Source: a plasmid. From it: a stretch of 64,000 nt of DNA. Below the pieces are notes generated by a model. It had not been told where the DNA came from. It did not search any database and saw only the letters and a list, made by a program, of their open reading frames with translations. Shown here piece after piece: positions 4,746-22,640 of the stretch. Numbering within the stretch: the first letter of the stretch is position 1; every line of letters starts with the position of its first letter. A program made the translations under genes and the position numbers. The stretch lies in assembly GCF_053078305.1 (NCBI RefSeq), contig NZ_CP166875.1, one strand, 5' to 3'.

Positions 4746-4877
4746 ATGAAAATAATAATTTTTCTAATTAAAATATTATTCTTGTCAGGATGTCAAGCAA
4801 ACTATATTCGTGATGTACAATGAGGAACCGTTGCGTCATCTTCGTCTTCTGAACTGACGGGGATCGCGGTTCAGTAG
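4746..4877 (+). pseudogene. csl: colicin lysis lipoprotein gene interrupted by in-frame TGA
   Basis: ATG 4746 encodes [25 protein letters not shown] (lipobox LSGC), then TGA at 4821-4823, then in the same frame [18 protein letters not shown] and TAG at 4875-4877. The stop sits where colicin lysis proteins have the first Gly of the conserved ...[12 protein letters not shown]... motif. Confidence 0.6.
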
Positions 4878-5076
4878 AAAAGATCAAAGGATCTCTTGAG
4901 ATGGGGTCCCAAGCCGGAAACCTGGATTTTTCCGCTGGATTTTTCCGCGACCAGTAACGGCGTGGGGTGTCACATAAATGACCGATTGAGTGACTGTCAC
5001 TGAAACAACGATTTCTACATCAGATTTCGTCACATAACCCGTCACCTATTGGGGTCAGTTTGGATATAGAGAATTA

Positions 5077-5114
5077 GGGGGCTGGCGCTCAGTGGAACGA
5101 AAACTCACGTTAAG
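5077..5114. repeat. Tn3-family 38-bp terminal inverted repeat
   Basis: GGGGGCTGGCGCTCAGTGGAACGAAAACTCACGTTAAG, near-identical to the Tn3 terminal IR as recalled (about 36/38). Confidence 0.6.
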
Positions 5115-5468
5115 CAATGTTTTCTTCCTCCGATGCCTCTTTTTGCCCTTTAGTCACCAGTTCTGCCAGCGTGAAGGAATATGGCCGAGCATATTGATGT
5201 GTCCGTGGCAAAGTGGTGAGAGGCGTGCGATATCTTCATCATTCACGATTTCCCCCTGTGCCCTGAAATGGTCCAGGGCAGCCTGCATATAAATAGTGTT
5301 CCATAATACGACGGCGTTAGTCACCAGCCCCAGTGCGCCCAGTTGATCTTCTTGACCATCGGTATATCGCTTTCTTATCTCACCTTTCTGACCGTGACAG
5401 ATAGCTCTGGCAACGGCATGGCGACTTTCTCCCCGGTTAAGTTGGGTCAGGATGCGCCAGCGGTAACG
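5110..5468 (-). pseudogene. tnpA: Tn3-family transposase, 3'-terminal fragment (truncated and frameshifted)
   Basis: Reverse-strand translation gives ...RYRWRILTQLNRGESRHAVARAICHGQKGEIRKRYTDGQEDQLGALGLVTNAVVLWNTIYMQAALDH...LSPLCHGHINMLGH, then after a 1-nt frameshift ...YSFTLAELVTKG...EENIA-stop ending inside the IR. Only about 119 codons remain. Confidence 0.55.
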
Positions 5469-5492
5469 GTGATTTCATATTGAAGATAACTG

Positions 5493-5513
5493 TTGTACAA
5501 TTTAATTGTACAA
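5493..5513 (+). promoter_or_regulatory. palindromic operator / promoter upstream of phd-doc
   Basis: Inverted repeat TTGTACAAT..ATTGTACAA containing a TACAAT -10-like hexamer, about 20 bp upstream of the phd start. Confidence 0.4.
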
Positions 5514-5530
5514 CTCAAAGAGGAAGCACT

Positions 5531-5755
5531 ATGTTTACATGTAACTATAGCCATGCTCGCGATAACCTGGCCTCGTTGCTCGAGCTGGCGGTTGATGAAA
5601 ATCAGCCTGTTGAGATTCAGCGCCGTAAAGGTGGCGCGGCTGTACTGGTTGATAAAGACGCTTTTGAACGATACCGTAAAGCGGCTCTTGATGCTGAGTT
5701 TGCTGAGATCATGCAAAGTCATGGGACGGCCTATACGGAGCTTTCTAAGCGATGA
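5531..5755 (+). CDS. phd: Phd/YefM-family antitoxin
   Basis: ATG 5531 with AAAGAGGAAG Shine-Dalgarno; small acidic protein MFTCNYSHARDNLASLLELAVDENQPVEIQRRKGGAAVLV...; stop overlaps the doc start (ATGA at 5752-5755). Confidence 0.75.
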   Translation: MFTCNYSHARDNLASLLELAVDENQPVEIQRRKGGAAVLVDKDAFERYRKAALDAEFAEIMQSHGTAYTELSKR

Positions 5756-6138
5756 AATTCGTTAGTTCACAGGAAATGATTGAGTTTCATGACCGCTTGA
5801 TTTCGCGTGATGGTGGCGTGGCGGGTATGCCAGAACCCGGTCGCGCTGACGCGATCATTCATCGTGTTTTGAACATGTATCATTATGAAGGTGTGACAGA
5901 TATTATGGATCTGGCTGCCGTGTATTTAGTTGCTATTGCTCGTGGTCACATTTTCAACGATGCAAATAAGCGAACAGCCTTGTTTGTTGCACAGGTTTTT
6001 TTAAAACGGAATGGTATACATATTATTAGTTCGCGTATTTCGTTTGATGAAATGCAAATTATCGCTTTGAATGCTGCAACAGGAGAATATAACTGGAAGA
6101 TGGTTTCTGACCATCTTAAAGCCATTATTTTAAATTAG
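5752..6138 (+). CDS. doc: Doc (death-on-curing) toxin, Fic/Doc family
   Basis: 128 aa with the Fic/Doc motif HIFNDANKRTA; translationally coupled to phd. Confidence 0.85.
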   Translation: MKFVSSQEMIEFHDRLISRDGGVAGMPEPGRADAIIHRVLNMYHYEGVTDIMDLAAVYLVAIARGHIFNDANKRTALFVAQVFLKRNGIHIISSRISFDEMQIIALNAATGEYNWKMVSDHLKAIILN

Positions 6139-6709
6139 ATATAGATATCCAATCAGCAGCATTTTACAATCTACTGAGCAATGTAAAAATCATATATCTT
6201 TTTGCTATATAATTTCTGGCGTATGTGCTCAATTCAGACCTGACACTTTTCCGCTTCCTCGCCCACTCGCTCACTACGTTCGGTCGCTGGGGCTGCGGCG
6301 AGCGTTTGTAAGTTTTCTCCAATACTGACGACGTGCTTCCTAGGACAATGAGTCTCTCAGAATCGGTTTCTCGAAGTGACGAGCGATCAGAATGGAGACA
6401 AATAAATTCGGGAAACGAACCTTCACGGTAAGTTTTGTCACATTTATCATCCCTAAACATGAGAATTATCACCAAAACTAACCACCCAACAAACAGCAGC
6501 GCCGGGAGCAGCATTATAAAATCATGTACAGTGTTGCGTAACGACATGATAAGTTCTCAATATGCTCTTTACCAGATTATACCAGTGATACTTTAACGCA
6601 CCATCATTAATGCTAATGTATGCATACATTAGCATTAACATGCTGACAGCAACAAGCGGCGGATTTACGTCTGGATAACGTAAATGATTGCGGTATACAG
6701 GCCAGGCGG

Positions 6710-7558
6710 TCAGATTTTCAGCCGTGCCTGTTCCTGCAGCAGTTCCAGATGATATGTAGCAATAGCGTTTACCACCCCTGCCGTCATCCGTGCGTCGGCG
6801 ATCGCTGAGTGTGCCTGCCCTTCCCAGGTCAGTCCGGCCTGGCTGGCAGCACAGGCCAGTGAAATCGTGCCATAGCGGTTGGTGGCCCCATAATATCCTG
6901 CAGCCAGCTCCATCGCACAATATACCGTCAGTTCTTCCAGCCAGTCAGCCGGATCGCTATGTGCGGCAGCAGTCTGTTTCAGAATGCGGATATCGAACCG
7001 GGCATTAAAGATAATTACTGGTCGGTCCCCGATTGCATGCCGCAGTTGCCGCGCCACATCTGTCCATGATGGTGCGCCGCAGAGTGCCTGCTCACTGATA
7101 CCATGCACGGCGGCGGCCTGCGCCCCGATGGCGACCGTGGGCTTCAGCCTGGTTTCAAACACCACCTGACCGGCCGCATCGGTCAGGCCGATTTCCAGGG
7201 CTTCCGAGGTATTATCCAGTCCTGTCGTTTCAGTATCCAGAAAGAGTGGTGCCAGACTCAGCCAGTCATATGCCTGCCGTGCCATCCGGCCACTGGTGCT
7301 GTTTAGTCGGGATAAAACGGAAAGCCGCTGGCCAGCCAGCTGTTGTTTACTCGTCAGAGGGCGTTTCTCACGCATCGGAACACAATCTGCAATTCGGTAT
7401 ACAGCGAACCTGCCACCATAAGTATTTTTATACCACTTAACCGGCTCAGCACCGGGGGCTGGCTTCATTCTGAATTCATCGCGCAGACGTCCTTTCGAGA
7501 AACACCTGTCTTCGGCAATCGCCTGCGCACGTCTGGTGACCAGCTCATCATTATTCAT
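6710..7558 (-). CDS. DEDDh 3'-5' exonuclease (DnaQ-like) with about 100-aa N-terminal extension
   Basis: 282 aa; Exo I motif FLDTETTGL, Exo II IIFNARFDIRIL, Exo III HSAIADARM; same strand and 45 bp downstream of the RelE/ParE-like toxin gene. Confidence 0.75.
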   Translation of the reverse strand: MNNDELVTRRAQAIAEDRCFSKGRLRDEFRMKPAPGAEPVKWYKNTYGGRFAVYRIADCVPMREKRPLTSKQQLAGQRLSVLSRLNSTSGRMARQAYDWLSLAPLFLDTETTGLDNTSEALEIGLTDAAGQVVFETRLKPTVAIGAQAAAVHGISEQALCGAPSWTDVARQLRHAIGDRPVIIFNARFDIRILKQTAAAHSDPADWLEELTVYCAMELAAGYYGATNRYGTISLACAASQAGLTWEGQAHSAIADARMTAGVVNAIATYHLELLQEQARLKI

Positions 7559-7603
7559 GGTTCTTGCATCTCCGTCAGACGTTTTTATATCCGGACAGCC
7601 CCT

Positions 7604-7885
7604 CTATGGCCACTTCTGTGCAGTATGCAATACTCGCAGGATATACACTTTTCCCCACTGGCTGTCGACCTCATAAACCAGAACAAAATGCGGGTGAATA
7701 ACCAGTTCCCGGGTACCTTCCACACGACCGTTGCGGCCTTTATACGGCTGCCCGGCCAGGCTGCTGGCTGAATAACCAATCCGTTCGTCCAGTTCAATGG
7801 CAGCCATCAGGTTCTGCTCCGCAATGTACTCACGAATGCGCTTCCTGTCCTGGCTGGCCAGCATGGTCCAGAATATCTCCATCAT
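7604..7885 (-). CDS. RelE/ParE-family toxin
   Basis: 93 aa; C-terminal ...HFVLVYEVDSQWGKVYILRVLHTAQ typical of the RelE/ParE fold; start overlaps the upstream antitoxin stop by 4 nt. Confidence 0.75.
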   Translation of the reverse strand: MMEIFWTMLASQDRKRIREYIAEQNLMAAIELDERIGYSASSLAGQPYKGRNGRVEGTRELVIHPHFVLVYEVDSQWGKVYILRVLHTAQKWP

Positions 7886-8151
7886 TTACCGGCAACCTTC
7901 CTGCTCATTTCATCCCGCCATGCTGCAGCAGAGGATTCGACCATGTCATGGGGAAGCACATCGCCGTGCTCGAGTTGCTGACGTCCTGCCGCAACCTGGT
8001 CACGGAACCAGGTATTATGCTGCCGTTCAACGGTCTGGCGCATAAAATCCCGGATTAACTGGGAGCCATTACGGTCCATGCTTTTTGCAGCGGCCATAAA
8101 AGCATCCTTCAGTTCAGCGTCGATTCTTAAACTCATATTAACCTGTGCCAT
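7882..8151 (-). CDS. RelB/ParD-family antitoxin (ribbon-helix-helix)
   Basis: 89 aa; N-terminal RHH signature MSLRIDAELKDAFMAAAKSMDRNGSQLIRDFM; first gene of the operon. Confidence 0.7.
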   Translation of the reverse strand: MAQVNMSLRIDAELKDAFMAAAKSMDRNGSQLIRDFMRQTVERQHNTWFRDQVAAGRQQLEHGDVLPHDMVESSAAAWRDEMSRKVAGK

Positions 8152-8874
8152 TTATCACCTCGTCATTACTACGTATATACACAGTATATAACGATTCAGA
8201 TATCGTCACCAGGATATGCCGCGCCAGCGGCATGGAAGGCGGCGCTCTGTTGTTTCATATGATACCGGAGTAAAACCGCCGAAGCCCGGCGTAAGCCGGT
8301 ACTGATTGATAGATTTCACCTTACCCACCCCCATCCCTGCCAGACCATACCCACTTTCAGCCATGAGAGAGCTTCTGTGCGCGGTCGGAGTGGTCCCGAC
8401 GAGGGTTTACCCGAAGTCGGGGCGTATCTCCGCGTTAGCGGGCCGTCAGGGCCGCTTACGAGCGTGTATTCAACACTTCCAGCGAGAAGACTGACAGCGA
8501 TGATGCTATTTAGTTACAACATTCATAATTAAAAGCGATGTTGTTCCCGCCCTTCGGGCGGGGGCGGCCTCGCTTTTCAGTTATGAGAGGTGAGCACGGT
8601 GCTGCGTTTGTGTGGTGTTTTTATTCCTGATGTCTTTTTGCTGTGGTTTCAGAACGGTGAGGTTCGGGGCCCGCGCGTTAGCGTGGGAGGTGCATATTTG
8701 CTTGTCCACAGGACAGGCACTGAATAGGTTTTCTTTTCAAATGGAAGTAATTAAGTAGTTTAAAGGAAATACAGTACTGGGGTTTAAAAGAAACATTGCA
8801 CCCTGTAACGCCTGCGGCTGGCGCTTTATAGCATTAACGGTTGTAATCTTACGGAGAAGTCCCTTGCAGTTAAA

Positions 8875-9058: not shown

Positions 9059-9931
9059 TCAGGGTGAGGCTGTGGCCAGCCGTGTGTAGTTGTTGTTCCG
9101 CGACATTATCATGCGTTCCTTCACGCGACGGTCGATTTCGCGCTTCACGGCCTCCAGGCTTCCCCGGAAACGCCCTTCCGCGATTTCACGTGTCAGCTGC
9201 CGTTTCACCAGGGTGACAATGTCCTGACGGGTCCTGCCTGCATCGCGGCGCGCACGGGCACGTTTCATGCCGTGGGACTTAAGCTCTGCCTGATAACTGC
9301 GGAAACGCTCGCGCACAAAACGCCAGGCTCTCGCTATCAGTTCATCCATACCCAGCGCATCCAGCCCCTGCTTTTTGCGCAGCTTGTTTTCCCATTCCAC
9401 GCGGCTGCGGCGTGCGGAAGCCACTGCCTCTTCTGAGATATCAAGTGAGTCAAACAGTGCCGGCGTGAACGTGATGTCGGTCGGGATGTTACAGCCAATT
9501 GTCGGGTCGTATTCCGTCTGGTAGGTTATCAGCCCCAGCTCAGACAGGAACTTCAGGGCACGGGTGGCACGGGTGATGGAGAGTTTCCCGGCCTCAGACT
9601 CCGTCGCCAGTCCGCACTCAATGGCCAGCGTGGTGATGGAGCACTGGACGCGGTTGGCCAGCGGATCGTAGTGGAAACACAGCCCCTGCAGCAGCGCATC
9701 AATCGCCCGGCGGCGCAGCACCGGCGGCATACGCCGGCGCAGGCCGCGCGAACGGGCATACGCCACATGCGCGGCAAAATCAAAACGGGAGGTGAAGCCC
9801 ACCGCCTTTTCCATCAGTTTTTCGCAGAACTTCAGCGTCCCGGCATCTTCACGGGGTGTGAAGACCGGATTCGGGTTCTTTACCTGACGGTATGTGCTTT
9901 CAGTAAATGAGGTCTGGTTCAGGGCCGCCAC
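9059..9931 (-). CDS. repA: RepA1-type replication initiator (IncFII / I-complex family)
   Basis: 290 aa; ...[99 protein letters not shown]... closely matches IncFII RepA1 as recalled; start codon uncertain (GTG in ORF track). Confidence 0.85.
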
Positions 9932-10633: not shown

Positions 10634-11275
10634 ATGTGCCTGTCAGAACTGCAGGCCGGGCTGAACGAGGGTCAGCCGCTGTTTCCGACACATGCTTTAT
10701 GTATTCGCCGTTCACAACAACATCGAAGCCCCTCTGCGGGGATCGATTTTCGCGGAGCGTTCCGGATTTTGAATATCAGTGAATTACATCAACGCAACTG
10801 GTATCTGGCTCAGTACATCCCTGCCGGCAAAAACCGCGAACATCTCTTTTCCTGGCTTTCCGAACAACACGTCCTTCCCTGGACACCCCTGATACTGAAA
10901 AAGGTCCGCCGCACGGATAAAGTCTGTGGTTACCGTCGACATATACACGCCGTGTTTCCCGGTTACTTTTTCCTGAAAGCAGACCCCGAACGCCACAGCT
11001 TCACTCACCTTCGCCGTCACAGTGCCTTTCTGGACTTCGTGAAAATGGCCGGTGAAATCAAAACCGTCAGGGAGGATATCGTTCAGTCTTTGATGAAAGT
11101 GTACCCGGATCCTGCGCTCAATCCGGCAGCCAGGGAGGAGCTGGATGCTGCCTCCACCCTCTGGCTGACAAAAGCGCGTTACCAGTACCTCCTCCGGCTT
11201 GATGCACAGCCTCTGCCGGAGTCGAGGATCGCCCTGCTCCTGCACCTGGTATCTGATGACGGAGCGTTGACATGA
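10634..11275 (+). CDS. NusG/RfaH-like (NGN domain) protein, possible transcription antiterminator
   Basis: Segment NWYLAQY...LPWTPLILKKVRRTDKVCGYRRHIHAVFPGYFFLKADPE...FLDFVKMAG parallels the RfaH/NusG NGN domain (FPNYLFVEFDPE); no clear KOW domain; start uncertain. Confidence 0.45.
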   Translation: MCLSELQAGLNEGQPLFPTHALCIRRSQQHRSPSAGIDFRGAFRILNISELHQRNWYLAQYIPAGKNREHLFSWLSEQHVLPWTPLILKKVRRTDKVCGYRRHIHAVFPGYFFLKADPERHSFTHLRRHSAFLDFVKMAGEIKTVREDIVQSLMKVYPDPALNPAAREELDAASTLWLTKARYQYLLRLDAQPLPESRIALLLHLVSDDGALT

Positions 11276-11415: not shown

Positions 11416-12081
11416 ATGACCATTCTATCCCAGGAAAACCCTGTCATTCTGTTACTGGAGAATATGCTCGAAGCACTCTCCACCGCCCCGGACAACATAA
11501 ACAACGAACGGCGTCGCCGGCGTTACCTGCTGAACTGGCTTGACACTGCCCGTCAGATGCGCGAGTTCAGAGGAATGGCTGAAGAGTTCACTACCCTGCG
11601 AAAACTGCTGGCCACCAATTCAGACATACCGGTAGCAAACACCCTGAAATCACTGCTGGAAAGTGGCAATAACGCAGCATTATACGACCTGTACCGCTTC
11701 CGCTCGGCTCTTTCCGCGTGCAGAAGTCTGGGATGGCAGATTGGCACGTGCGCATGGAACGACCAGCTGCTGAGTGAGACACTTTCCCGTGCGCAAACAG
11801 GTAAACGTCATATCCTGCAGCTGAACAGTACCAGAGACACCTTTTCCACCACGGGCAGAATGCTCAGACCGGTGGCATTTTCATTAATTCATCCGGCATC
11901 CCTCGAATCTTCAGAAGTGGAAGAGATATTCCGGGATGAAGGTTTTATACTCGCGCACGGACGCGAATGCAGCCTGAACGGCAGCGGCAGAAACATGCTG
12001 TCACGCATTCTTCATGTGGGGCATTCAGGTTTACCGAAAGCCGAATGGGGCATAGATCACAGCAATCACCTGTTACACTGA
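11416..12081 (+). CDS. hypothetical protein
   Basis: 221-aa ORF, no recognisable motif. Confidence 0.3.
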   Translation: MTILSQENPVILLLENMLEALSTAPDNINNERRRRRYLLNWLDTARQMREFRGMAEEFTTLRKLLATNSDIPVANTLKSLLESGNNAALYDLYRFRSALSACRSLGWQIGTCAWNDQLLSETLSRAQTGKRHILQLNSTRDTFSTTGRMLRPVAFSLIHPASLESSEVEEIFRDEGFILAHGRECSLNGSGRNMLSRILHVGHSGLPKAEWGIDHSNHLLH

Positions 12082-12347
12082 AATACCGGGACAGCCACAA
12101 CGGCAGCCACTCTCCGCTGACTTTTTTTCGCAAATCGCGGTTTGCTGATGTGGATGTCCCATTTTTTATTATCCGTCCTCTCCGGTTGTCATAAAGCGCA
12201 TTCCGGCGTGAGGCTTCTGTTGTTATCATCCCCTCCTGCAGACATCCCCTTGTCTTCTGATGACTGACGATATGCTTCTTCTGACAATTAAAGAAGCGGA
12301 AGCTTCACGCCATAATGTTGTTTGACTGACCTGCCACAGGAGGAAAA

Positions 12348-12968
12348 ATGACACTGACGTTACTTACCGCGTATAACGCACCCTATCTGGCAGCCCTGAC
12401 TTTTGTTCTGCTTACTGGTATCGCTGAACTTATCGCCCTGCTCTGCGGACACTCCCTCTCTTCAGCTATGGATACACCTGATTTACCGGAGGGGCTGACA
12501 GGAGAGGCGCTGGACTGGCTGAACATCGGACGGATCCCCCTGCTGATCGTCCTCTGTATACTGGCAGGTTTTTTTGGTATATCCGGCATTCTCCTGCAGG
12601 GTCTTATTATTCATCTGCTGCAGGCTCCTGCCCCGAACATTCTCCTTGCACCACTTTGCCTGCTGCTGACATGTCCTCTCGTACACCGCACCGGCAGACT
12701 GATTGCCCCCTGGTTACCCCGTGATGAAACAACGGCGCTCACCGAGGAGGCATTCATCGGGTGTATGGCCACCATCACCGGTTATCACGCAGTGGCGGGT
12801 TCCCCCTGTGAAGGTCGCTTCACAGACCGCTTTGGGCAGGTTCATTACCTGTTGCTGGAGCCGGAGGCCGGGAAAGAATTCAGACGAGGAGACAAAGTGA
12901 TTATTGTCTGCCGTCTTTCCGGTTCCCGCTGGCTGGGCGAACTGAATCCCTGGCCGGATGTTCTTTAA
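12348..12968 (+). CDS. yqiJ: NfeD-like membrane protein (YqiJ-like)
   Basis: 206 aa; N-terminal TM helices plus C-terminal soluble domain (...GQVHYLLLEPEAGKEFRRGDKVIIVCRLSGSRWLGEL); upstream of an SPFH/flotillin gene as in the yqiJ-yqiK pair. Confidence 0.55.
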   Translation: MTLTLLTAYNAPYLAALTFVLLTGIAELIALLCGHSLSSAMDTPDLPEGLTGEALDWLNIGRIPLLIVLCILAGFFGISGILLQGLIIHLLQAPAPNILLAPLCLLLTCPLVHRTGRLIAPWLPRDETTALTEEAFIGCMATITGYHAVAGSPCEGRFTDRFGQVHYLLLEPEAGKEFRRGDKVIIVCRLSGSRWLGELNPWPDVL

Positions 12969-12971: not shown

Positions 12972-12979
12972 CGACATAT
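12972..12979. repeat. 8-bp target-site duplication (left) of IS66 element
   Basis: CGACATAT immediately left of the IS terminus; identical copy at 15513-15520. Confidence 0.7.
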
Positions 12980-13009
12980 GTAAGCGTCAACGGAGCACCG
13001 TATTGACGC

Positions 13010-14623
13010 TTATTTATTGGTGAGTACTACGTTCCATGGCAGGAGTTCATCAACTCGGTTGGAAGGCCATTCTGGCAGTACGCTCAGGATATGGCGCAGA
13101 TACGCTTCCGGATCGATACCGTTCAGACGGCAGGTGCCGATCAGCCCGTACAACAGTGCTCCACGCTCGCCGCCGTGATCGCTGCCAAAGAACATAAAGT
13201 TTTTCTTTCCGAGACAGACTGCACGAAGCGCTCTTTCCGCAGCATTATTATCCGCCTCCGCCAGACCGTCATCACTGTAATAACAGAGGGCATCCCACTG
13301 ATTCAGTACATAGCTGAACGCTTCGCCCAGTCTGGATTTTTTCGACAGCGTACCATTCTTCTCCACCATCCATTCATGCAGTGACGTCAGTAACACTTTG
13401 CTTCGCTGCTGCCTGACGGCAAGACGCTCTGACTCCGGTAATCCCCGTATTTCATCCTCGATGGCGTACAGTTCACTGATTCGCTTCAGGGCTTCTTCTG
13501 CCGTCGCACTTTTGCTGCTGATGTATACATCGTGGATTTTTCGCCGGGCATGGGCCCAGCACGCAACTTCTGTCAGTGCACCACCTTCACGTTCTGCACT
13601 GAACAGCCGATCGTAACCGCTGAACGCATCCGCCTGCAGGATACCCCGGAAGGGACGAAGGTGTTGTACCGGATGTTTTCCCTGCCTGTCTGGTGAGTAG
13701 GCGAACCAGACCGCCGGTGGCTCTGATGAGCCCGCATTCCGGTCATCCCGGACATACGTCCAGATGCGTCCTGTTTTTGCCTTTTTTCTGCCCGCTGCCA
13801 GCACTTTTACTGGTGTGTCGTCAGTGTGAACCTTGCGGGTGTTCATCACGTAACGGTACAGGGTATCATTCAGCAGAGTCATTAACTGACAACATGCGTC
13901 AACCCAGTTGGAGAGTAATGCCCGGCTCAGTTCGATGCCCTGGCGGGCAAAGATTTCACTCTGACGATACAGTGGCAGGTGTTCGCAGTATTTTCCCGTT
14001 AACACGCGGGCAAGTAATCCGGAGCCCGCGATGCCGCGCTCTATCGGGCGGGACGGCGCTGGCGCTTCAACTATACAGTCACATTTTGTACAGGCTTTTT
14101 TTACCCGAACAGTGCGGATCACTTTCAGGGCGCTACTCACCAGTTCCAGCTGCTCAGCACTGACTTCCCCCAGATAATCCAGCTCACTGCCACACTCCGG
14201 GCAACAACTTTCTTCAGGCTCCAGACGGTGTATTTCACGGGGAAGATGTGCCGGTAACGGACGACGATGACGTGACTGTCGCAACTGGCGGGGAACCTGC
14301 GGGTCATCCTCACGCCCACTGTAACGATCGCTTTCCTGTTCGCGTTGTTTCAGTTGGGCCTCAGCCTGTTCAACCTCACGCTGCAGTTTTTCAGAACGGG
14401 TACCGAACAACATCCGGCGCAGTTTTTCTATCTGGGCCCTCAGATGTTCTATTTCCCGCTCCTCCTCTTCGATCTTTTCCTCGGCACGTGCCAGTGCAGA
14501 GCGCAGGAAGGCCTCCGTCTCTTCAACCAGACTCAGTTGCTGATCTTTCTGACGGAGGGCTTCAGCCTGCTCAGAGAGCAGCCTTTCCAGCTCAGTGATA
14601 CGAATGAGGTATTTCCGACTCAT
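13010..14623 (-). CDS. tnpC: IS66-family transposase (TnpC)
   Basis: 537 aa with N-terminal coiled-coil / leucine zipper, Cys-rich zinc-finger (CCPECGSELDY...CTKCDC) and a long catalytic region typical of IS66 transposases. Confidence 0.9.
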   Translation of the reverse strand: MSRKYLIRITELERLLSEQAEALRQKDQQLSLVEETEAFLRSALARAEEKIEEEEREIEHLRAQIEKLRRMLFGTRSEKLQREVEQAEAQLKQREQESDRYSGREDDPQVPRQLRQSRHRRPLPAHLPREIHRLEPEESCCPECGSELDYLGEVSAEQLELVSSALKVIRTVRVKKACTKCDCIVEAPAPSRPIERGIAGSGLLARVLTGKYCEHLPLYRQSEIFARQGIELSRALLSNWVDACCQLMTLLNDTLYRYVMNTRKVHTDDTPVKVLAAGRKKAKTGRIWTYVRDDRNAGSSEPPAVWFAYSPDRQGKHPVQHLRPFRGILQADAFSGYDRLFSAEREGGALTEVACWAHARRKIHDVYISSKSATAEEALKRISELYAIEDEIRGLPESERLAVRQQRSKVLLTSLHEWMVEKNGTLSKKSRLGEAFSYVLNQWDALCYYSDDGLAEADNNAAERALRAVCLGKKNFMFFGSDHGGERGALLYGLIGTCRLNGIDPEAYLRHILSVLPEWPSNRVDELLPWNVVLTNK

Positions 14624-14653
14624 GACCGTTTTTATAATCCGGCCATGACATTT

Positions 14654-15004
14654 TTACAACATTGTCAGTGCATTAAGGCGGGATGTTTTGGGCTGACGCC
14701 AGTCCAGTTTATCGAGGAGCATTGCCAGCTGCGAGCGGGTAATGGATACCTTACCGTCACGCACCGCAGGCCAGATAAACTGGCCTTCCTCCAGACGTTT
14801 GGTGAACAGGCACAGACCATCAGCATCAGCCCACAGAATTTTAATCGTGTCACCCCGTCGGCCGCGAAAGATAAACAGGTGACCGGAGAAGGGGTTCTCA
14901 TCCAGCACATGTTGTACCTGTTCTCCCAGACCGTTGAAGGATTTACGCATATCAGTAACGCCGGCAACCAGCCAGATTCGAGTGCCTGATGGGAGCGAGA
15001 TCAT
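14654..15004 (-). CDS. tnpB: IS66 Orf2 (TnpB) accessory protein
   Basis: 116 aa, MISLPSGTRIWLVAGVTDMRKSFNGLGEQV..., the conserved IS66 Orf2. Confidence 0.85.
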   Translation of the reverse strand: MISLPSGTRIWLVAGVTDMRKSFNGLGEQVQHVLDENPFSGHLFIFRGRRGDTIKILWADADGLCLFTKRLEEGQFIWPAVRDGKVSITRSQLAMLLDKLDWRQPKTSRLNALTML

Positions 15005-15426
15005 CGTCCCCTCCCGGTCAGTTCACGGATCAACACCGTGAGCAGCTCTGGTGAAGGATTTTCCAGCGTCATGTTACCGTGGCGGAACTCAACTTTACAG
15101 GAACTGGCACTGACTGTGCTTTGTGAAGGAGTGGATAAAAGCGGAGTAAGAGCCGCCACAGGCTCTTTCTGCTCATCAGGCGTTATCTCAACAGGTAATA
15201 ATTCAACGCCAGCGCCAGAAGAGGTTGTTACCGGAAGACGCCGCGATATACGCCCTTCGTTCTGCCAGAGCCTGAGCCATTTGAACAGGAGGTTATCATT
15301 GATATCGTGTTCCCGGGCAATACGGGCAACAGAGGCTCCTGGTTGTGAAGCCAGTTTAACCATTTGAAGTTTAAACTCATTTGAAAATGATCTGCGGGGT
15401 TCTGAGGATAATATTTTCTGTTCCAT
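15001..15426 (-). CDS. tnpA: IS66 Orf1 (TnpA) HTH protein
   Basis: 141 aa with HTH (FSNEFKLQMVKLASQPGASVARIAREHDINDNLLFKWLR); stop overlaps the Orf2 start. Confidence 0.8.
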   Translation of the reverse strand: MEQKILSSEPRRSFSNEFKLQMVKLASQPGASVARIAREHDINDNLLFKWLRLWQNEGRISRRLPVTTSSGAGVELLPVEITPDEQKEPVAALTPLLSTPSQSTVSASSCKVEFRHGNMTLENPSPELLTVLIRELTGRGR

Positions 15427-15512
15427 AACAGGTGTCCACTAGTTGAAAAGGTGGGCACCTACGTTACCAATACTGGCTTAATGGCTACATACGGCGGTCA
15501 GTTTACGCTTAC

Positions 15513-15520
15513 CGACATAT
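15513..15520. repeat. 8-bp target-site duplication (right) of IS66 element
   Basis: CGACATAT, identical to 12972-12979. Confidence 0.7.
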
Positions 15521-15535
15521 ACAGAGGTTCTCACT

Positions 15536-17230
15536 ATGTTTAATCTTCCGGGATGGTTGTTTACCGTTATTTCGCTGGTCCTCACCCTGTTCGTTATCGG
15601 GCTGATATTTGCCCGCCTGTACCGTCGGGCATCGGCAGAGCAGGCCTTTGTCCGCACAGGTCTGGGAGGCCAAAAAGTGGTAATGAGTGGCGGTGCAATT
15701 GTTATGCCCATTTTTCACGAAACAATTCCCGTCAACATGAACACCCTGAAGCTGGAAGTCAGTCGTGCAGCGGCTGAAAGTCTCATTACCCGCGACCGCA
15801 TGCGTGTTGATGTTGCCGTTGCCTTTTTTCTTCGGGTAAAACCATCAGCCGAAGGAATATCCACTGCAGCCCAGACGCTGGGACAACGCACGCTCACACC
15901 TGAAGATCTGCGTAGTCTGGTCGAGGATAAATTTGTTGATGCCCTGCGGGCCACGGCGGCCAGAATGAGCATGCAGGATTTACAGGATGCCCGCGAGAAC
16001 TTTGTTCAGGGTGTGCAGAACACCGTTGCGGAAGACTTATCCAAAAACGGTCTGGAGCTTGAAAGTGTGTCGCTGACAAGTTTCAACCAGACTGCACGGG
16101 AACATTTTAATCCTGACAATGCCTTTGATGCTGAAGGCCTGACCCTTCTGACCCAGGAAACAGAACGTCGTCGCCGCGAACGTAACGAAGTTGAGCAGGA
16201 TGTTGAAGTGGCCATCAGGGAAAAAAACCGGGATGCACTCTCCCGACGTCTGGAGATTGAACAGCAGGAAGCCTTCATGACTCTGGAGCAACAACAACGG
16301 GTAAAAACCCGTACGGCAGAGCAGAGTGCCAGTATTGCTGCTATTGAAGCTGAACGACGTCGTGAAGCAGAATCCGCGAGAATTCTGGCTGAACGTAAGA
16401 TAGAGGAAGCCGAAATCGAACGACAGCAGATAGTGCGTACCCGCCAGGTCGAAGCCGAACGGGAAGTGGCCATACGGGAAATTGAGCAACAGCAGGCAAC
16501 CGAAATCGCCAGCCAGGCCAGAGCCATTGCCGTGGCTGCAAAATCGGAAGAGCAGTCACAGGCAGAAGCCCGGGCAAGTAAAGCACTGGCTGAAGCCGTA
16601 CAGGCCCAGCAGGATGTGGAAACCACCCGCCAGACTGCGGAGGCCGACCGTACCAAACAGGTTGCCCTGATTGCTGCTGCTCAGGAAGCTGAAACGAAAG
16701 CGGTTGAACTGACGGTTCGCGCACAGGCTGAAAAAGAAGCAGCCGAACTCCAGGCAGCAGCAATTATTGAACTGGCGGAGGCCACCCGTCAGAAAGGTCT
16801 GGCAGAAGCAGAAGCACAGCGCGCACTGAACGATGCCATTAACGTGCTTTCGGATGAGCAGACCAGCCTCCGCTTCCGTCTTGCCCTGCTGGATGCATTA
16901 CCTGCCGTCATAGAGAAGTCCACAGAACCAATGAAATCCATTGACGGCATTAAAATCATTCAGGTGGATGGCCTGAATGGCGGTGTTACCCGTGGTAAAA
17001 CAGCAACAACCGACATAAGTGGCGGAAATCTCGCTGAACAGGCGGTAACCGCCGCTCTGGCTTACCGTACACAGGCTCCGCTCATCGACTCCCTGCTGAA
17101 GGAGGTGGGGTTATCCGGTGAAGGACTTACAGCCCTGACACGTCCACTGGTCATGCCAGCCCCGGAAAAGGTCCCGGATGTCAGCGAACCGGTAACCGCT
17201 CCGGATAACTCAGAACCACAACAGGTTTAA
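15536..17230 (+). CDS. yqiK: flotillin-like SPFH/band-7 protein (YqiK-like)
   Basis: 564 aa; N-terminal TM anchor, SPFH domain, then long Ala/Glu/Gln-rich coiled-coil (AEAERRREAESARILAERKIEEAEIERQQIV...); AGAGG Shine-Dalgarno before ATG 15536. Confidence 0.75.
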   Translation: MFNLPGWLFTVISLVLTLFVIGLIFARLYRRASAEQAFVRTGLGGQKVVMSGGAIVMPIFHETIPVNMNTLKLEVSRAAAESLITRDRMRVDVAVAFFLRVKPSAEGISTAAQTLGQRTLTPEDLRSLVEDKFVDALRATAARMSMQDLQDARENFVQGVQNTVAEDLSKNGLELESVSLTSFNQTAREHFNPDNAFDAEGLTLLTQETERRRRERNEVEQDVEVAIREKNRDALSRRLEIEQQEAFMTLEQQQRVKTRTAEQSASIAAIEAERRREAESARILAERKIEEAEIERQQIVRTRQVEAEREVAIREIEQQQATEIASQARAIAVAAKSEEQSQAEARASKALAEAVQAQQDVETTRQTAEADRTKQVALIAAAQEAETKAVELTVRAQAEKEAAELQAAAIIELAEATRQKGLAEAEAQRALNDAINVLSDEQTSLRFRLALLDALPAVIEKSTEPMKSIDGIKIIQVDGLNGGVTRGKTATTDISGGNLAEQAVTAALAYRTQAPLIDSLLKEVGLSGEGLTALTRPLVMPAPEKVPDVSEPVTAPDNSEPQQV

Positions 17231-17235: not shown

Positions 17236-17553
17236 GTGCCGGAATTTTTCCGGCATCTTTTTCACAAAGAATGCCCTCACGGGATATTCTGGTTTAAAAG
17301 AGGATTGAAAATGTCCGCAGAAAAATTCAGAGTTGTCATATACACCAATACATGTGAAAAGAAAGTCAGTTATATTCCTGCAACAGAAGATATAAACATC
17401 GCTATAATGCCATTTCAGACGGCAGACAATGGCTTAATTATTGTGTGTCAGAACTCCCGTATAATACGACGCAAAGAGCGTATACCCGGAAGCAGCTGTG
17501 AATGGAAAGATGTGACATTAGCACTAAAATCCAGAAACCGCGTTCAGTTATAG
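17236..17553 (+). CDS. hypothetical protein
   Basis: 105-aa ORF between yqiK and the pil operon; start may be the internal Met (MSAEKF...). Confidence 0.25.
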   Translation: MPEFFRHLFHKECPHGIFWFKRGLKMSAEKFRVVIYTNTCEKKVSYIPATEDINIAIMPFQTADNGLIIVCQNSRIIRRKERIPGSSCEWKDVTLALKSRNRVQL

Positions 17554-18161: not shown

Positions 18162-19232
18162 ATGCAAAAAAAATCACTTACACTCCTTCTGCCGTCATTA
18201 CTCAGCGGCTGTACGGCATTTAATGCCACGCCTGTTCCTGACACCACACCTCCGGCTCTGGTGTTCGTCGACGGACAAATTCGCGAAAGCGCTGCCATTA
18301 TCGCCCATACGCAAAAACGTCTGCTTCCGCCACCGGTGACCCGCCCTGTGACGCCGCCCCGCCCGACAACAACAGCGACGCCCACAACCGCAGTCAGCAG
18401 CCAGAGTACCGCACTGCCTCCCCGCCCGCTCCTTCAGGCCACACAGCTGCCCGCACTGGTTATGACCGGTAAACCCGGTCAGTCATCCGTCGTTTATTTA
18501 CGTGAGGCACGTCAGCGCTCCGTCAGTGACTGGATACGCCAGTTGCTGCCACCCGGCTGGCAGTTCCGGCAACAGAACGCTGCCATACCGGCACTGAACA
18601 AACGCCTCCCCGTCTGGTCCGTTAATGACCAGTGGCACCGGGCACTGAATACTCTGCTGACCGGGCAGCAACTGTACGGACATATGGACTGGAACAGGAA
18701 AATACTGACTGTCACGACCACTGCAGCACCGCCTGTTGACCTCACGGCACCGCAGGGTTCACAGAAAACAGCGGACACACCACGTAATCCGTTCAGGAGC
18801 ACAACCGGAACAGCGGCAGACCAGGCACAGGTACCACCTGCCGTCAGCGCTTCCCGGGTTCAGAGCACAACAGGGACATCCGGTACATCTGCGCCCCGCA
18901 CAACCACGCCAGCCCCAGTGGTCACGAAACCGGTAGCGCCACCACCACAGAAGGTCACACCGCCACGGCAGTGGAAAATGGAAAAAGGGACCACGCTGAA
19001 GGACGGACTGGCCCGCTGGACGTCGTCCGAAAAATGCCCCCACGGCACCTGGACGCTGCGCTGGGAAACGCCCGTTAACTACAGTATCGATGCCCCTCTG
19101 GTTTTCACCGGCAGTTTCCGCCAGGCGCTGGAACAGCTCTTCGCACTCTACACCCCGGTGGAAAAACCGCTGTATGCCCGGACCAGCACTGCACAATGTC
19201 TGCTGCGGGTGACAGATCGTCCACAGGAATAA
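18162..19232 (+). CDS. pilL: thin-pilus lipoprotein PilL
   Basis: 356 aa; signal peptide plus lipobox LLSGC; Pro/Thr-rich linkers; first gene of a pilL-pilV order matching the R64 thin-pilus operon as recalled. Confidence 0.7.
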   Translation: MQKKSLTLLLPSLLSGCTAFNATPVPDTTPPALVFVDGQIRESAAIIAHTQKRLLPPPVTRPVTPPRPTTTATPTTAVSSQSTALPPRPLLQATQLPALVMTGKPGQSSVVYLREARQRSVSDWIRQLLPPGWQFRQQNAAIPALNKRLPVWSVNDQWHRALNTLLTGQQLYGHMDWNRKILTVTTTAAPPVDLTAPQGSQKTADTPRNPFRSTTGTAADQAQVPPAVSASRVQSTTGTSGTSAPRTTTPAPVVTKPVAPPPQKVTPPRQWKMEKGTTLKDGLARWTSSEKCPHGTWTLRWETPVNYSIDAPLVFTGSFRQALEQLFALYTPVEKPLYARTSTAQCLLRVTDRPQE

Positions 19233-19236
19233 CCTT

Positions 19237-19674
19237 ATGGGCTGGTTCATCGTGTTCATCATGGTCATCACGACCACAGGCAATTTCTGGTTCACCAGTC
19301 AGCTCTCCCGCAGCGAACACCGTCATCAGGCCGCAGAAAACACACAACAGGCAGCAACGTTCATTCGTTATATGAACGCCATCAATGATTACCTGCATCA
19401 GCATCCGGAACGACGGACAGCCGGAGGGCGGCTGACATCCGCTCAGCTCGGGATTCCCGGGACGGATACCGTCAGTCATATCATCAGCCAGCAACGTGTT
19501 TTTGTCTGGGCTACAGAAACCCCGGGCCTGATGGCCGCGCTCAGGGAACAGAGTAATGACTCTGCTCTGCTCGGCAGGGTGGAAAACGGCCGACTGCTGG
19601 ACACAGCCGGCAGAGCGCTTTCCGTCACACTTCCGTCAGTGATCCCCGATCACGTCATCCTCTGGATGAATTAG
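19237..19674 (+). CDS. pilM: thin-pilus biogenesis protein PilM
   Basis: 145 aa with N-terminal TM anchor; position in operon. Confidence 0.55.
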   Translation: MGWFIVFIMVITTTGNFWFTSQLSRSEHRHQAAENTQQAATFIRYMNAINDYLHQHPERRTAGGRLTSAQLGIPGTDTVSHIISQQRVFVWATETPGLMAALREQSNDSALLGRVENGRLLDTAGRALSVTLPSVIPDHVILWMN

Positions 19675-19704
19675 TCACGAATCTGAATAAATCACGGATC
19701 TCCC

Positions 19705-21324
19705 ATGAATAAAAAAATTCTTGCCATTATGATTGCCGCCGCTCTGTTACAGGGCTGTGCCAGTTACAGACAGCTTGAGAGCACAAGAAAGGAAGCCGTT
19801 GCGGAACAACAACGGGCACGGGAAATGATGTCTGATCTGCGAACCCGGACGCCGGTTGTTAAGGAATCCTCACGACAATGGATCAATCCCCGTCCGGTCA
19901 TGGATAAAAACACCGGCAAAACCGTTCCCGGTTGTCCCATTGTCATTCATACCCGTCAGAGCATCACCCTTCAGCAGGTGGTTCAGCGGATCACGGAAAG
20001 CTGCCATATTCCGGTACGGATCACACCTGATGTACTGACATACCTGAATACATCCACAACCGGCAGCACACAACAAATCCAGGGCGCATTACCCCCACCG
20101 GATGCGAGCGGCATGGTTCCCCTTGCCGCCATTGGCGCATCTGACACGCCACCATCCCGTCTGCCGGGAAATACCGCAGCACTGTCTGAACTGAATGCCT
20201 CCGGCCTGACGACCCTGCTGAATGCGGTCTCCTCCCGTCTCGGTATATCCTGGCGCTATGACGGCTCGCATATCATCTTCTATTATCTCGAGACACAGAC
20301 CTTCCCCATCACCTATATGGACAGTCAGGTGGCCTATAACGCCACTGTGGTCAGCGGCACCATGTCCTCAAACGGCTCATCAGGAGGCAGTGCATCAGAT
20401 GCCATTTCCGGTGATGCCAGCAATACCCAGACCACCACCGTGGATATGAAGTCTGCGCTGTATCAGGATGTGAAAAATGCGGTCACATCAATGCTGACCC
20501 CGGGTATCGGACGCATGTTCATGTCCACGGGCTTTATCACCGTCACAGATAATCCACAGGTTCTGGAAACGGTCCGGGCATTCATTGAAAAACGCAATGA
20601 AGAGATGAAACGTCAGGTGGTGCTGAATGTGGAAATTCTGAGTATCCGGAAAACCCGCAATGAGCAGGCCGGTATCGACTGGAACGCAGTCTTCAGCGAC
20701 AGAACGCTGGGACTGAGTCTCGGCAGCACATTCACCAGTGCAGCCAGTGATGCCATCACAGGTGGTGTTTCCATTGTGGACGGTAAACTCACCGGTTCAA
20801 AAGCCTTCCTGAAAGCATTGTCTTCCCAGGGGGATGTCAGTGTGGTGACCCAGAACTCTGCCGTCACCAAAAACCTGACGCCGGTGCCAATGCAGATCGC
20901 CAATCAGCAAAGTTACATCGAGAGTGTGACGACGGATACCACAGCCAATGTCGGCTCATCCACCTCTCTGAATGCGGCCACCATCACCACCGGTTTTAAC
21001 ATGACCCTTCTGCCGTTCATTCTCCCGGACTCACAGACACTGCAGTTGCTCTATTCCATGAGTCTCTCCGACAAACCGGTTATTGAGAATTATGAGAGCG
21101 GTGGAAGTAAAGCCCAGCTGCCGAATGTGGATCTGAAAACCATCAATCAGACCGTGGATCTGAAATCCGGGCAGACGGTCATTATCAGTGGCTTCCAGCA
21201 GTCAGGACGTCGCAGCGGAAAACAGGGTGTAGGTACGCCGGGATTCTTCGGTCTTGGCGGTGGGATCAACAGTGAAAACGACGACACCATTCTCGTGGTG
21301 CTGATCACGCCCAATATCATCTGA
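19705..21324 (+). CDS. pilN: type IVb pilus secretin lipoprotein PilN
   Basis: 539 aa; lipoprotein signal (LLQGCAS); C-terminal secretin-like region ending ...GTPGFFGLGGGINSENDDTILVVLITPNII. Confidence 0.8.
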   Translation: MNKKILAIMIAAALLQGCASYRQLESTRKEAVAEQQRAREMMSDLRTRTPVVKESSRQWINPRPVMDKNTGKTVPGCPIVIHTRQSITLQQVVQRITESCHIPVRITPDVLTYLNTSTTGSTQQIQGALPPPDASGMVPLAAIGASDTPPSRLPGNTAALSELNASGLTTLLNAVSSRLGISWRYDGSHIIFYYLETQTFPITYMDSQVAYNATVVSGTMSSNGSSGGSASDAISGDASNTQTTTVDMKSALYQDVKNAVTSMLTPGIGRMFMSTGFITVTDNPQVLETVRAFIEKRNEEMKRQVVLNVEILSIRKTRNEQAGIDWNAVFSDRTLGLSLGSTFTSAASDAITGGVSIVDGKLTGSKAFLKALSSQGDVSVVTQNSAVTKNLTPVPMQIANQQSYIESVTTDTTANVGSSTSLNAATITTGFNMTLLPFILPDSQTLQLLYSMSLSDKPVIENYESGGSKAQLPNVDLKTINQTVDLKSGQTVIISGFQQSGRRSGKQGVGTPGFFGLGGGINSENDDTILVVLITPNII

Positions 21325-21344
21325 TTTGCACAAGGAGGACGATC

Positions 21345-22640
21345 GTGACGGATATTTCACCGACAGGGCGGCAGGTGTTTCCGCTGACGGCAGGGCGCAA
21401 TGTGTTTCTGGCCGGTCTGGAATGGAAAACACTGCCCTCACAGTACCGGCATGCCCGCGACTTTGCCCGGGCACAGAAAGCCGACCTTTTCCTGGCCTGT
21501 CAGTATCTCAGTAATGAAGATGCCGATACCCACACCATGGTAGCCACTGTCAGTCGCCGCATACTGCCCGGAAAACCCCGTCAGTGCTTCTCCCTCGCCC
21601 TGCTGATCCTGCCACTGCTTGAACATGGCGGCTATGCCATCACGGAACTGACGTTACCCGGAGAAACACCGCGCTATAGCTTTGTTTCCGTTGTCGACGG
21701 TGTTCTCGTCAGTGACCTGGTGGGAAGCGGGGAAGAGGTTCGGGAAGCCCGGGATACCTTTCTTTCCATCAACACCGAACCAACTCAGGGCTGGATACAC
21801 TATGCACCGGCGGCATTTTCAGCAGGCGATCAGAATCAGCACCTGCCGCTGGCCTCCCTGACTGGCTCTGGTAAACATCCGGCTGCCGCACGCCTGAATC
21901 CGGTATCCCGGGGACCGCAGTTCATCACTGTCTCTCTGATCATCGCCCTTCTCGGCACTGCATGGTACGGCTGGCAGTATTATGAACGCTGGCAGACAGA
22001 AAAAGCCGCGCAGGCAGCGGTTGCCCGACAGGCCACAGAGGAACGAATCACTCCCCCCTGGCCCGGACTCCCTGAAACAGACGCGTTCATCCGGGGATGT
22101 GCTGATATATGGACTTCACTGCCACTGTCTGCTGCCGGATGGCGTTATTCGCTGGCAGAATGCTCGACTGACGGTGGCAGCGGCAATCTTCGCGCATCGT
22201 ACACCAATACTGCGGGCGCGACAGTGACTGACTTCATCCGGCGCATCAGTGATATGACAGACAGCCGACCGTTTATTGTGATGCCGGAAGGAAAGACCGG
22301 CGGCATTGGCCTGCCGGTCACCTTCCGGCTGTCTGAAAACGCCGTCACAGTTGATGCACTACCGGAAACCGCTGTCCTGCAGGAACGACTGACCTCGCTG
22401 GCTCAGTCAATGCAACTGAAACTGGACTGGCAGGAAGTTAATAACAGCCTCACTGATGAGAACGGACAGATCATTCAGCCCCCATGGAAAGAGTATGACC
22501 TTCAGATGCAGACCACACTCCCTGCACACCATCTGGCTGAACGCCTGAAAGAGCCTTCTGTCCGTTTTATCTCTGTCACACGGCAACTGGAGAACGGTCG
22601 TTTCCACTATCAATTTACAGGTAAATATTATGCCCGATAA
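21345..22640 (+). CDS. pilO: thin-pilus biogenesis protein PilO
   Basis: 431 aa with one internal TM segment; position in operon. Confidence 0.55.
   Translation: MTDISPTGRQVFPLTAGRNVFLAGLEWKTLPSQYRHARDFARAQKADLFLACQYLSNEDADTHTMVATVSRRILPGKPRQCFSLALLILPLLEHGGYAITELTLPGETPRYSFVSVVDGVLVSDLVGSGEEVREARDTFLSINTEPTQGWIHYAPAAFSAGDQNQHLPLASLTGSGKHPAAARLNPVSRGPQFITVSLIIALLGTAWYGWQYYERWQTEKAAQAAVARQATEERITPPWPGLPETDAFIRGCADIWTSLPLSAAGWRYSLAECSTDGGSGNLRASYTNTAGATVTDFIRRISDMTDSRPFIVMPEGKTGGIGLPVTFRLSENAVTVDALPETAVLQERLTSLAQSMQLKLDWQEVNNSLTDENGQIIQPPWKEYDLQMQTTLPAHHLAERLKEPSVRFISVTRQLENGRFHYQFTGKYYAR

Follow-up and report, generated by a model that had tools for sequence, protein, structure and literature searches.

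We found that a single copy of IS682 has very probably inserted into the spacer between a yqiJ-like gene and a flotillin gene on a conjugative plasmid common in E. coli, with a likely polar reduction of flotillin expression and a small effect on the cell. In the window, the whole 64,000-nucleotide stretch of plasmid DNA that was analyzed, a complete IS66-family element of 2,533 bp occupies positions 12980-15512 and carries three intact open reading frames (ORFs) on the minus strand. The features of the locus are listed below.

12322..12349, plus strand: promoter-like site, TTGACT-16-AAAAAT, candidate native promoter of the gene pair (consensus scan, 9 of 12)
12348..12968, plus strand: intact gene for a yqiJ-like (NfeD2-type, OB-fold) inner-membrane protein (Pfam YqiJ_N 5e-16, YqiJ_OB 1e-14)
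12972..12979, no strand: left copy of the 8-bp target-site duplication, CGACATAT (single copy in empty-site plasmids)
12980..15512, minus strand: complete IS66-family insertion sequence, IS682 or a close isoform (identity to IS682-annotated copies; boundaries from the empty-site alignment)
12980..13003, no strand: terminal inverted repeat IRR at the tnpC-distal end, GTAAGCGTCAACGGAGCACCGTAT (inverted-repeat search)
12980..13017, plus strand: hairpin in the IS end with a U-rich tract, possible terminator for yqiJ transcripts (RNA fold -21.9 kcal/mol, z = -3.67)
14623..13010, minus strand: tnpC, DDE transposase, 537 aa (Pfam DDE_Tnp_IS66 3e-95; NCBIfam NF033517 equivalog, 442.7 bits, cutoff 180)
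15004..14654, minus strand: tnpB, IS66 accessory protein, 116 aa (Pfam TnpB_IS66 8e-37; NCBIfam NF033819, 121 bits, cutoff 50)
15426..15001, minus strand: tnpA, HTH accessory protein, 141 aa (Pfam HTH_Tnp_1 7e-15; NCBIfam NF047595, 85.5 bits, cutoff 74)
15489..15512, no strand: terminal inverted repeat IRL at the tnpA-proximal end (inverted-repeat search)
15513..15520, no strand: right copy of the 8-bp target-site duplication, CGACATAT (sequence read)
15536..17230, plus strand: intact yqiK-like flotillin (SPFH2) gene (Pfam Flot 1e-38, Band_7 6e-19)
17236..17256, plus strand: terminator-like hairpin at the end of the two-gene unit (9-bp stem then T-run, just past the flotillin stop codon)

A sequence-only reading of this DNA had described a complete IS66-family element with terminal repeats, three intact ORFs and perfect 8-bp direct repeats, without giving the element a name, and all of its coordinates held. 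Family domains and ends were present, and the minus-strand ORFs encode products of 141, 116, and 537 aa. The sequence CGACATAT at 12972-12979 is repeated perfectly at 15513-15520, on the other side of the IS; an 8/8 match at two fixed positions has a chance of about 1 in 65,536. The terminal inverted repeats (12980-13003 and 15489-15512) are imperfect, 24 nt long and 83% complementary, and form the longest inverted pair in the region. Both ends begin with GTAAGCGT, which contains the GTAAGCG start and has only two copies in the 64-kb window.

The family assignment was evaluated from the proteins and the ends. TnpA, TnpB, and TnpC all scored above the curated cutoffs of their NCBIfam equivalogs. 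The Pfam profile DDE_Tnp_IS66 was covered at positions 1-283 of 284 by TnpC (E = 2.8e-95), which also contains zf-IS66, LZ_Tnp_IS66, and IS66_C domains (Pfam) and a CWAH motif at residues 355-358. tnpA and tnpB overlap by ATGA at 15004-15001, read on the plus strand as TCAT at 15001-15004. The IS66 family, reportedly described by Han and colleagues in 2001 and by Gourbeyre and colleagues in 2010, is said to carry consecutive tnpA-tnpB-tnpC genes on one strand. TnpC of the IS66 type belongs to the DDE transposases and carries a conserved CwAH motif, and the ATGA overlap of the tnpA stop and tnpB start is suggestive of translational coupling. The ends of such elements are imperfect inverted repeats of about 20-30 bp with a 5'-GTAAGCG start, and their usual length is about 2.4-2.7 kb. 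The target duplication of IS66 has been reported as 8 bp (PMC6778807). Here, the gene order, CWAH motif, ATGA overlap, GTAAGCG ends, 8-bp duplication, and length of 2,533 bp were all found, and the element belongs to the IS66 family.

Judged by identity to RefSeq-labelled copies, the element is IS682 or a very close isoform. Over its full 2,533 bp, it showed 99.7-99.8% DNA identity to the IS682-annotated copies in NZ_OQ420472.1, NZ_CP124742.1, and NZ_CP104118.1. TnpC was identical at 537/537 residues to WP_044186286.1, annotated as 'IS66-like element IS682 family transposase', and the ORF lengths (1614, 351, and 426 nt) were the same as in IS682. Isoforms in ISfinder are defined by at least 95% DNA identity to the reference sequence; IS682 is used here as the ISfinder name applied by RefSeq/PGAP and MobileElementFinder. 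No structural difference from the IS682-labelled copies was observed, and the insertion site alone is new, with no occurrence in the four collections searched. ISEc23 and ISEc8, sister IS66-family elements of E. coli, resemble it in their three-gene layout, their GTAAGCG ends, and their 8-bp duplications. Copies labelled ISEc23 shared 92.5-93.2% identity with the element overall, rising to as much as about 99% over the tnpC-distal 500 bp; with overall identity below that of the IS682-labelled copies, ISEc23 and ISEc8 are relatives and not the same element. IS682 occurs commonly on both the chromosomes and the plasmids of E. coli (PMC8386418), and IS66-family copies in general were abundant, with matches in 4,598/5,426 complete E. 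coli genomes.

An uninterrupted plasmid (L001) provided an independent check of the IS boundaries: it aligns to window position 12979 and resumes at 15512, the alignment overlap of 9 nt representing the 8-bp duplication plus one chance base. The IS begins 11 nt past the yqiJ-like stop codon (12966-12968), ends 23 nt ahead of the flotillin start codon, and is antisense to both genes. A search of related plasmids for the uninterrupted yqiJK junction, suggested in the sequence-only reading, recovered the empty junction TTCTTTAATCCCGACATATACAGAGG at 100% identity in many plasmids (400-nt query). The occupied junction was absent from 5,426 complete E. coli genomes and 72,556 plasmids (PLSDB), searched with junction-spanning queries, and from 100,044 species-representative genomes and metagenome contigs, scanned for exact 30-mers. 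Given that many plasmids match the empty site at 100% identity and that the occupied junction occurs in none of the four collections, the insertion is, on these comparisons, recent and private to the source plasmid lineage. The recent transposition proposed earlier is supported, and the insertion is a simple one. The occupied junction AATCCCGACATAT/GTAAGCGTCAACGG represents a precise strain- or lineage-specific marker that is usable for plasmid tracking.

We also considered the spacer as an IS hot spot and rejected it: about 105 genomes contained split empty-site matches, but the breaks were at other positions. These matches are short yqiJ-3'/yqiK-5' remnants, present as inverted copies around espP in STEC virulence plasmids. 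One break lies inside yqiJ, beside a different IS66-type end, and the other lies 24 nt into yqiK, beside a non-IS66 transposase remnant.

The yqiJ-like and flotillin genes are presumably co-transcribed in their uninterrupted form, because the spacer is short, a single promoter-like site lies upstream, and a terminator-like hairpin follows the second gene. The earlier description of the site as the short spacer of a two-gene unit was confirmed, with a yqiJ-yqiK-type spacer of 26 nt. The layout is that of an NfeD2-SPFH2 operon, with an NfeD-like OB-fold gene directly upstream of flotillin on the same strand and this 26-nt spacer at the empty site; such an operon type has been described for E. 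coli yqiJ-yqiK (Hinderhofer et al., 2009; PMC2636767). The plasmid pair shares its domain pairs (YqiJ_N/YqiJ_OB; Band_7/Flot) and its one-strand gene order with chromosomal yqiJ-yqiK, and its flotillin gene shows about 75% nucleotide identity to chromosomal yqiK over about 90% of the length. Unlike the chromosomal genes, the plasmid paralogue is located between tra regulators (NusG/RfaH-like TraB, TraC-like) and the pil thin-pilus operon, and here it is split by the IS. The yqiJ-like product is annotated in relatives as 'OB-fold-containing protein'. The flotillin protein is 100% identical in uninterrupted plasmids, and the flotillin Shine-Dalgarno sequence AGAGG (15522-15526) is kept despite the IS. 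Beyond the terminator-like hairpin, a promoter-like site was observed at 17261-17290, ahead of pilI. A NusG/RfaH-like protein is encoded upstream of the pair, at 10634-11275.

In the mechanism that we propose, the 26-nt spacer of a conjugative plasmid, probably of the IncB/O/K/Z type, very probably received one IS682 copy by transposition. TnpC, the DDE transposase, would have acted with TnpA and TnpB to make a staggered 8-bp cut at CGACATAT, and gap repair would have duplicated this sequence. Both genes remain intact, and flotillin now lies 2.5 kb further from the promoter presumably shared with yqiJ. The antisense, untranslated IS, with its entry hairpin and U-rich tract, stands between this presumed promoter and flotillin, and polarity would much reduce flotillin expression while yqiJ expression would be kept. 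Reduced flotillin expression through polarity is the most likely outcome predicted from the sequence, because the IS is antisense and untranslated, the entry hairpin has a U-rich tail, and no convincing promoter faces flotillin. On the plus strand, each of the three frames across the IS is stop-rich (18-31 stop codons). The candidate native promoter overlaps the annotated yqiJ-like start codon and is only a 9/12 consensus match. The uncoupling of flotillin from its native promoter, as suggested in the sequence-only reading, is a plausible view and in line with the signal scans.

A less probable outcome, which nevertheless deserves some weight, is that the insertion is transcriptionally neutral or activating, so that flotillin expression would be near normal or higher via read-through or via a weak promoter, outward-facing or hybrid, in the tnpA-proximal end. 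Weak plus-strand promoter-like sites matching at 8/12 positions lie at 15364-15412, inside the IS at its tnpA end, and a standard scan found no canonical intrinsic terminator on the plus strand inside the IS, both of which favor such expression. However, no promoter-like site facing yqiK reached at least 9/12 in the promoter scans; a relaxed scan in this direction gave 7-8/12 matches only, and a weak 8/12 promoter-like site across the junction (15512-15540) is too near the ATG to be useful. The hairpin and U-rich tract at the entry end of the IS also argue against read-through, although the hairpin, which has a 4-nt apical loop, may fail to terminate transcripts because it contains internal mismatches and its tail, UUAUUUAUU, is not a clean U-run. 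The upstream NusG/RfaH-like protein is a possible antiterminator that could render transcription termination-resistant and aid read-through. Against this, no RfaH-type ops motif was found near the locus; a single perfect match lay at a distance, at minus-strand position 33684, and the total count was not above chance. Moreover, Rho-dependent polarity classically acts on untranslated antisense RNA, and the 2.5 kb of such RNA expected across the IS suits this process.

Two further explanations concern the insertion itself. It is very improbable that a repeated IS was misplaced during assembly and that the real plasmid has an uninterrupted junction. The abundance of IS66-family copies, the frequent misassembly of repeats, and the failure to find the occupied junction elsewhere would fit such an artefact, but a misplaced repeat would not leave the target perfectly duplicated over 8 bp right at the ends of the IS. 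In addition, the flanks are otherwise collinear with, and 100% identical to, empty-site plasmids, and the length of the duplication fits the IS66 family (PMC6778807). Even harder to credit is that the IS is a relic of an IS-mediated rearrangement (deletion, inversion, or composite transposon end) and not a simple insertion. IS66-family elements do bound the rearranged yqiJ/yqiK remnants around espP in STEC plasmids; here, however, the two flanks adjoin each other in empty-site plasmids, the IS lies between identical direct repeats, and no second IS copy, as donor or composite partner, was found in the 64-kb window. The empty-site matches and the flank alignment to L001 effectively refute this explanation.

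The plasmid that received IS682 probably has, by the type of its closest relatives, an IncB/O/K/Z (IncK2/Z-type) I-complex conjugative backbone. Such a backbone combines an IncB/O/K/Z replicon with an I-type transfer system (MPF_I, MOBP) and a shufflon-bearing pil thin-pilus operon. These relatives are typed IncK2/Z, MOBP, MPF_I, or named IncB_O_K_Z, and the window carries an IncFII_repA-family RepA and pilI/TcpQ-type genes. pEc1-50748 (NZ_CP104118.1) and p550_IncB_O_K_Z (NZ_CP058225.1) showed 99.9% identity over 24.5 kb of the pil/tra backbone. Both have the order repA - nusG-like - hypothetical - yqiJ - flotillin - pilI...pilV and, unlike the plasmid studied here, an uninterrupted yqiJ-flotillin spacer. 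pEc1-50748 carries IS682 downstream of the shufflon recombinase gene, with its own 8-bp direct repeat, TGCTAAAT, present twice; this site is empty in the plasmid studied here. Two independent IS682 insertions in near-identical backbones suggest that IS682 is currently mobile on IncK2/Z-type plasmids.

An NfeD/SPFH pair on a conjugative element had been called unusual in itself. This is true across plasmids overall, where flotillin was detected in 494/72,556 records, but not among IncB/O/K/Z plasmids, in which the pair is a conserved and published backbone feature. yqiJ/yqiK are already labelled on maps of Shigella sonnei IncB/O/K/Z plasmids (PMC8549364). The pair was matched in 333 of the 5,426 complete E. 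coli genomes, always on plasmids, and many plasmids keep only short flotillin remnants.

The effect of the IS682 insertion on the cell is probably small, because a chromosomal yqiJK paralogue is present in nearly all E. coli (yqiK in 5,423/5,426 complete genomes). On IncB/O/K/Z plasmids, the pair holds a conserved place between transfer regulators and thin-pilus operon. This raised the idea, which we regard as a long shot, that the plasmid YqiJ/flotillin pair scaffolds a membrane microdomain for the type IV pilus or the type IV secretion machinery of the plasmid itself. The IS-split copy would then represent a natural allele with polar knock-down and altered mating efficiency. Both the short remnants in many plasmids and the universality of the chromosomal paralogue speak for a dispensable pair. 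The event is clean but ordinary: the element and the yqiJ/yqiK pair on these plasmids were already known, and it has little import beyond annotation. For study of the uncharacterised plasmid flotillin module, the plasmid offers a ready natural allele in which yqiJ would be expressed and yqiK is probably down.

The yqiJ-like gene (NfeD2-type; 12348..12968, plus strand) and the yqiK-like flotillin gene (SPFH2; 15536..17230, plus strand) are separated by a 2,533-bp insertion sequence (IS; 12980-15512, minus strand). The terminal repeats claimed for it by the sequence-only reading were recovered as a 24-nt, 83%-complementary inverted repeat beginning GTAAGCGT, the longest inverted pair of the region; this 8-mer occurs twice in the 64-kb window, both times at the IS ends. 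The direct repeats were likewise found to be perfect (CGACATAT at 12972-12979 and 15513-15520), and the three ORFs, described as intact, are all uninterrupted:

15426..15001, minus strand: ORF 1 (tnpA), 141 aa, Pfam HTH_Tnp_1
15004..14654, minus strand: ORF 2 (tnpB), 116 aa, Pfam TnpB_IS66
14623..13010, minus strand: ORF 3 (tnpC), 537 aa, Pfam DDE_Tnp_IS66, zf-IS66, LZ_Tnp_IS66 and DDE_Tnp_IS66_C

The tnpA stop overlaps the tnpB start in an ATGA (15004-15001). ORF 3 covers the full-length DDE_Tnp_IS66 profile (E = 2.8e-95), TnpC residues 355-358 read CWAH, and the NCBIfam equivalog models for IS66 TnpA, TnpB and IS66 transposase exceeded their curated cutoffs. The element belongs to the IS66 family: all of the sequence-level features tested, reportedly set out by Han et al. 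in 2001 and Gourbeyre et al. in 2010, were found, including GTAAGCG ends, the 8-bp duplication and the 2.5-kb length. An 8-bp duplication has been described for this family (PMC6778807). A Megablast search of 72,556 plasmids returned end-to-end matches labelled 'IS66-like element IS682 family' by RefSeq at 99.7-99.8% identity, whereas ISEc23-labelled copies showed ~93% identity, and TnpC was identical to WP_044186286.1 (537/537). Because of these DNA and protein matches, the element is identified, by the RefSeq labels of its matches, as IS682 or a very close isoform. IS682 is a routinely reported E. coli IS.

The empty site was rebuilt by joining 200 nt of each flank around a single CGACATAT copy. 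The proposed search for an uninterrupted junction in relatives succeeded, as many E. coli plasmids matched this site at 400/400 nt; the full site was present in 228 of 5,426 complete E. coli genomes, each time plasmid-borne. The alignment of p550_IncB_O_K_Z (NZ_CP058225.1), an IncB/O/K/Z plasmid with an empty spacer, runs to 12979 and restarts at 15512. The occupied junction had no match in PLSDB or in the complete E. coli genomes (n=5,426), and as an exact 30-mer it was absent from 100,044 species-representative genomes and from JGI metagenome contigs. The perfect duplication, the unaltered flanks and the privacy of the junction indicate a recent event within this plasmid's own lineage, in line with the recent transposition originally claimed. 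No second copy was found within the 64-kb window, so the IS donor would lie elsewhere in the source genome.

The surrounding backbone includes the following genes:

9059-9931: repA, IncFII_repA-family
10634-11275, plus strand: NusG/RfaH-like gene
11416-12081: hypothetical gene
17311-17553: pilI, 3' of the yqiJ-like and flotillin genes
18162-19232: TcpQ/PilL-like gene

Downstream of the IS, 24.5 kb of sequence shares 99.9% identity with conjugative plasmids of the IncK2/Z and IncB/O/K/Z groups, which are typed as MOBP and MPF_I. One such relative, pEc1-50748 (NZ_CP104118.1), differs from the window plasmid in having an intact yqiJ-flotillin spacer; its own IS682 lies at 19058-21590, ~16 kb downstream of the spacer, with TGCTAAAT (8-bp duplication) on each side. 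The two copies are oriented alike with respect to the backbone, each target ends in AT beside the same IS end, and the pEc1-50748 target is empty in the window (31562-31589). That IS682 has inserted twice, independently, into backbones this similar indicates indirectly that it is active in this plasmid population. The observation is correct and cleanly documented; the event is ordinary, with IS and plasmid backbone both already known, and the insertion site is its sole novelty. The NusG-family gene matched the RfaH models weakly (38.5 bits vs cutoffs of 124 and 144.5), and its start codon is uncertain, the protein being 213 aa in the window ORF and the pEc1-50748 annotation vs 168 aa in p550_IncB_O_K_Z.

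The empty-site spacer is 26 nt. In the occupied site, 11 nt separate the yqiJ-like stop codon (12966-12968) from the IS and 23 nt separate the IS from the flotillin ATG (15536), and the flotillin Shine-Dalgarno (AGAGG, 15522-15526) is undisturbed. Two signals flank the genes:

12322-12349: a single promoter-like site 5' of yqiJ
17236-17256: terminator-like hairpin directly 3' of the flotillin stop codon

A further promoter-like site lies between this hairpin and pilI. The pair appears to form a self-contained unit of two genes, matching the NfeD2-SPFH2 type that Hinderhofer et al. described (PMC2636767).

The IS genes are antisense to this unit. The tnpC-distal end (12980-13017) folds into a stable hairpin (-21.9 kcal/mol, z = -3.67), and UUAUUUAUU comes next, U-rich on the inward-reading strand; transcription arriving from outside the element could be blocked there. 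A transcript leaving yqiJ would meet this hairpin and then 2.5 kb of IS, which holds 18-31 stop codons per frame in that direction. Such a stretch lends itself well to Rho-dependent polarity. A consensus scan found no promoter-like site of at least 9/12 facing the flotillin gene. Because of the antisense IS, the entry hairpin, the stop-closed 2.5 kb and this lack of a promoter-like site, reduced flotillin expression with yqiJ expression kept is the most likely outcome, and a reasonably probable one. The main rival, read-through of the IS or a weak outward promoter, appears unlikely; a relaxed scan toward the flotillin gene gave 7-8/12 matches only. Even if flotillin expression is reduced, the phenotype is probably small and the plasmid copy looks dispensable, since chromosomal yqiK (~75% nt identity to the plasmid copy) is present in 5,423/5,426 E. 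coli genomes and several I-complex plasmids retain just short flotillin remnants.

The pair had also been called unusual on a conjugative element. This holds for plasmids overall: by tblastn, flotillin was detectable in 494/72,556 plasmid records, of which most are conjugative plasmids from Escherichia or Shigella, with distant homologues (~44% identity) on alphaproteobacterial megaplasmids. It does not hold for the IncB/O/K/Z group, in which the pair belongs to the fixed backbone and has already been drawn as yqiJ/yqiK on published maps of S. sonnei plasmids (PMC8549364). In many Escherichia and Shigella plasmids the flotillin survives only as short pieces (residues 417-464 or 531-564; 94-100% identity; examples of the remnant type are NZ_CP080167.1, NZ_CP097366.1 and NZ_MG299139.1), which implies that the yqiJK module has been deleted repeatedly from related backbones.

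In STEC virulence plasmids (O145, O121 and others), espP lies between two inverted copies of a remnant (5923-6240 and 11833-12099 in pRM9872-1, NZ_CP028380.1) that spans the final ~267 nt of yqiJ, the adjoining spacer and the initial 24 nt of the flotillin gene and matches the window at 100% identity. Seen in ~105 E. coli genomes, each remnant adjoins an IS66-type end (...GCGCTTAC) on one side and a truncated transposase gene on the other. They have the appearance of relics of an I-complex backbone on either side of the espP module.

Upstream of the replicon lie colicin and immunity genes, with two further genes between this module and repA:

2322-3818, plus strand: pore-forming colicin, 498 aa, colicin S4-type translocation domain (Pfam PF22512, PF01024)
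3841-4374, minus strand: colicin immunity gene, convergent with the colicin gene (PF03857)
5752-6138, plus strand: short Fic/DOC-family protein, 128 aa
6710-7558, minus strand: RNase_T-type exonuclease, 282 aa

Of window 1-8215, p550_IncB_O_K_Z shares just a 248-nt patch.
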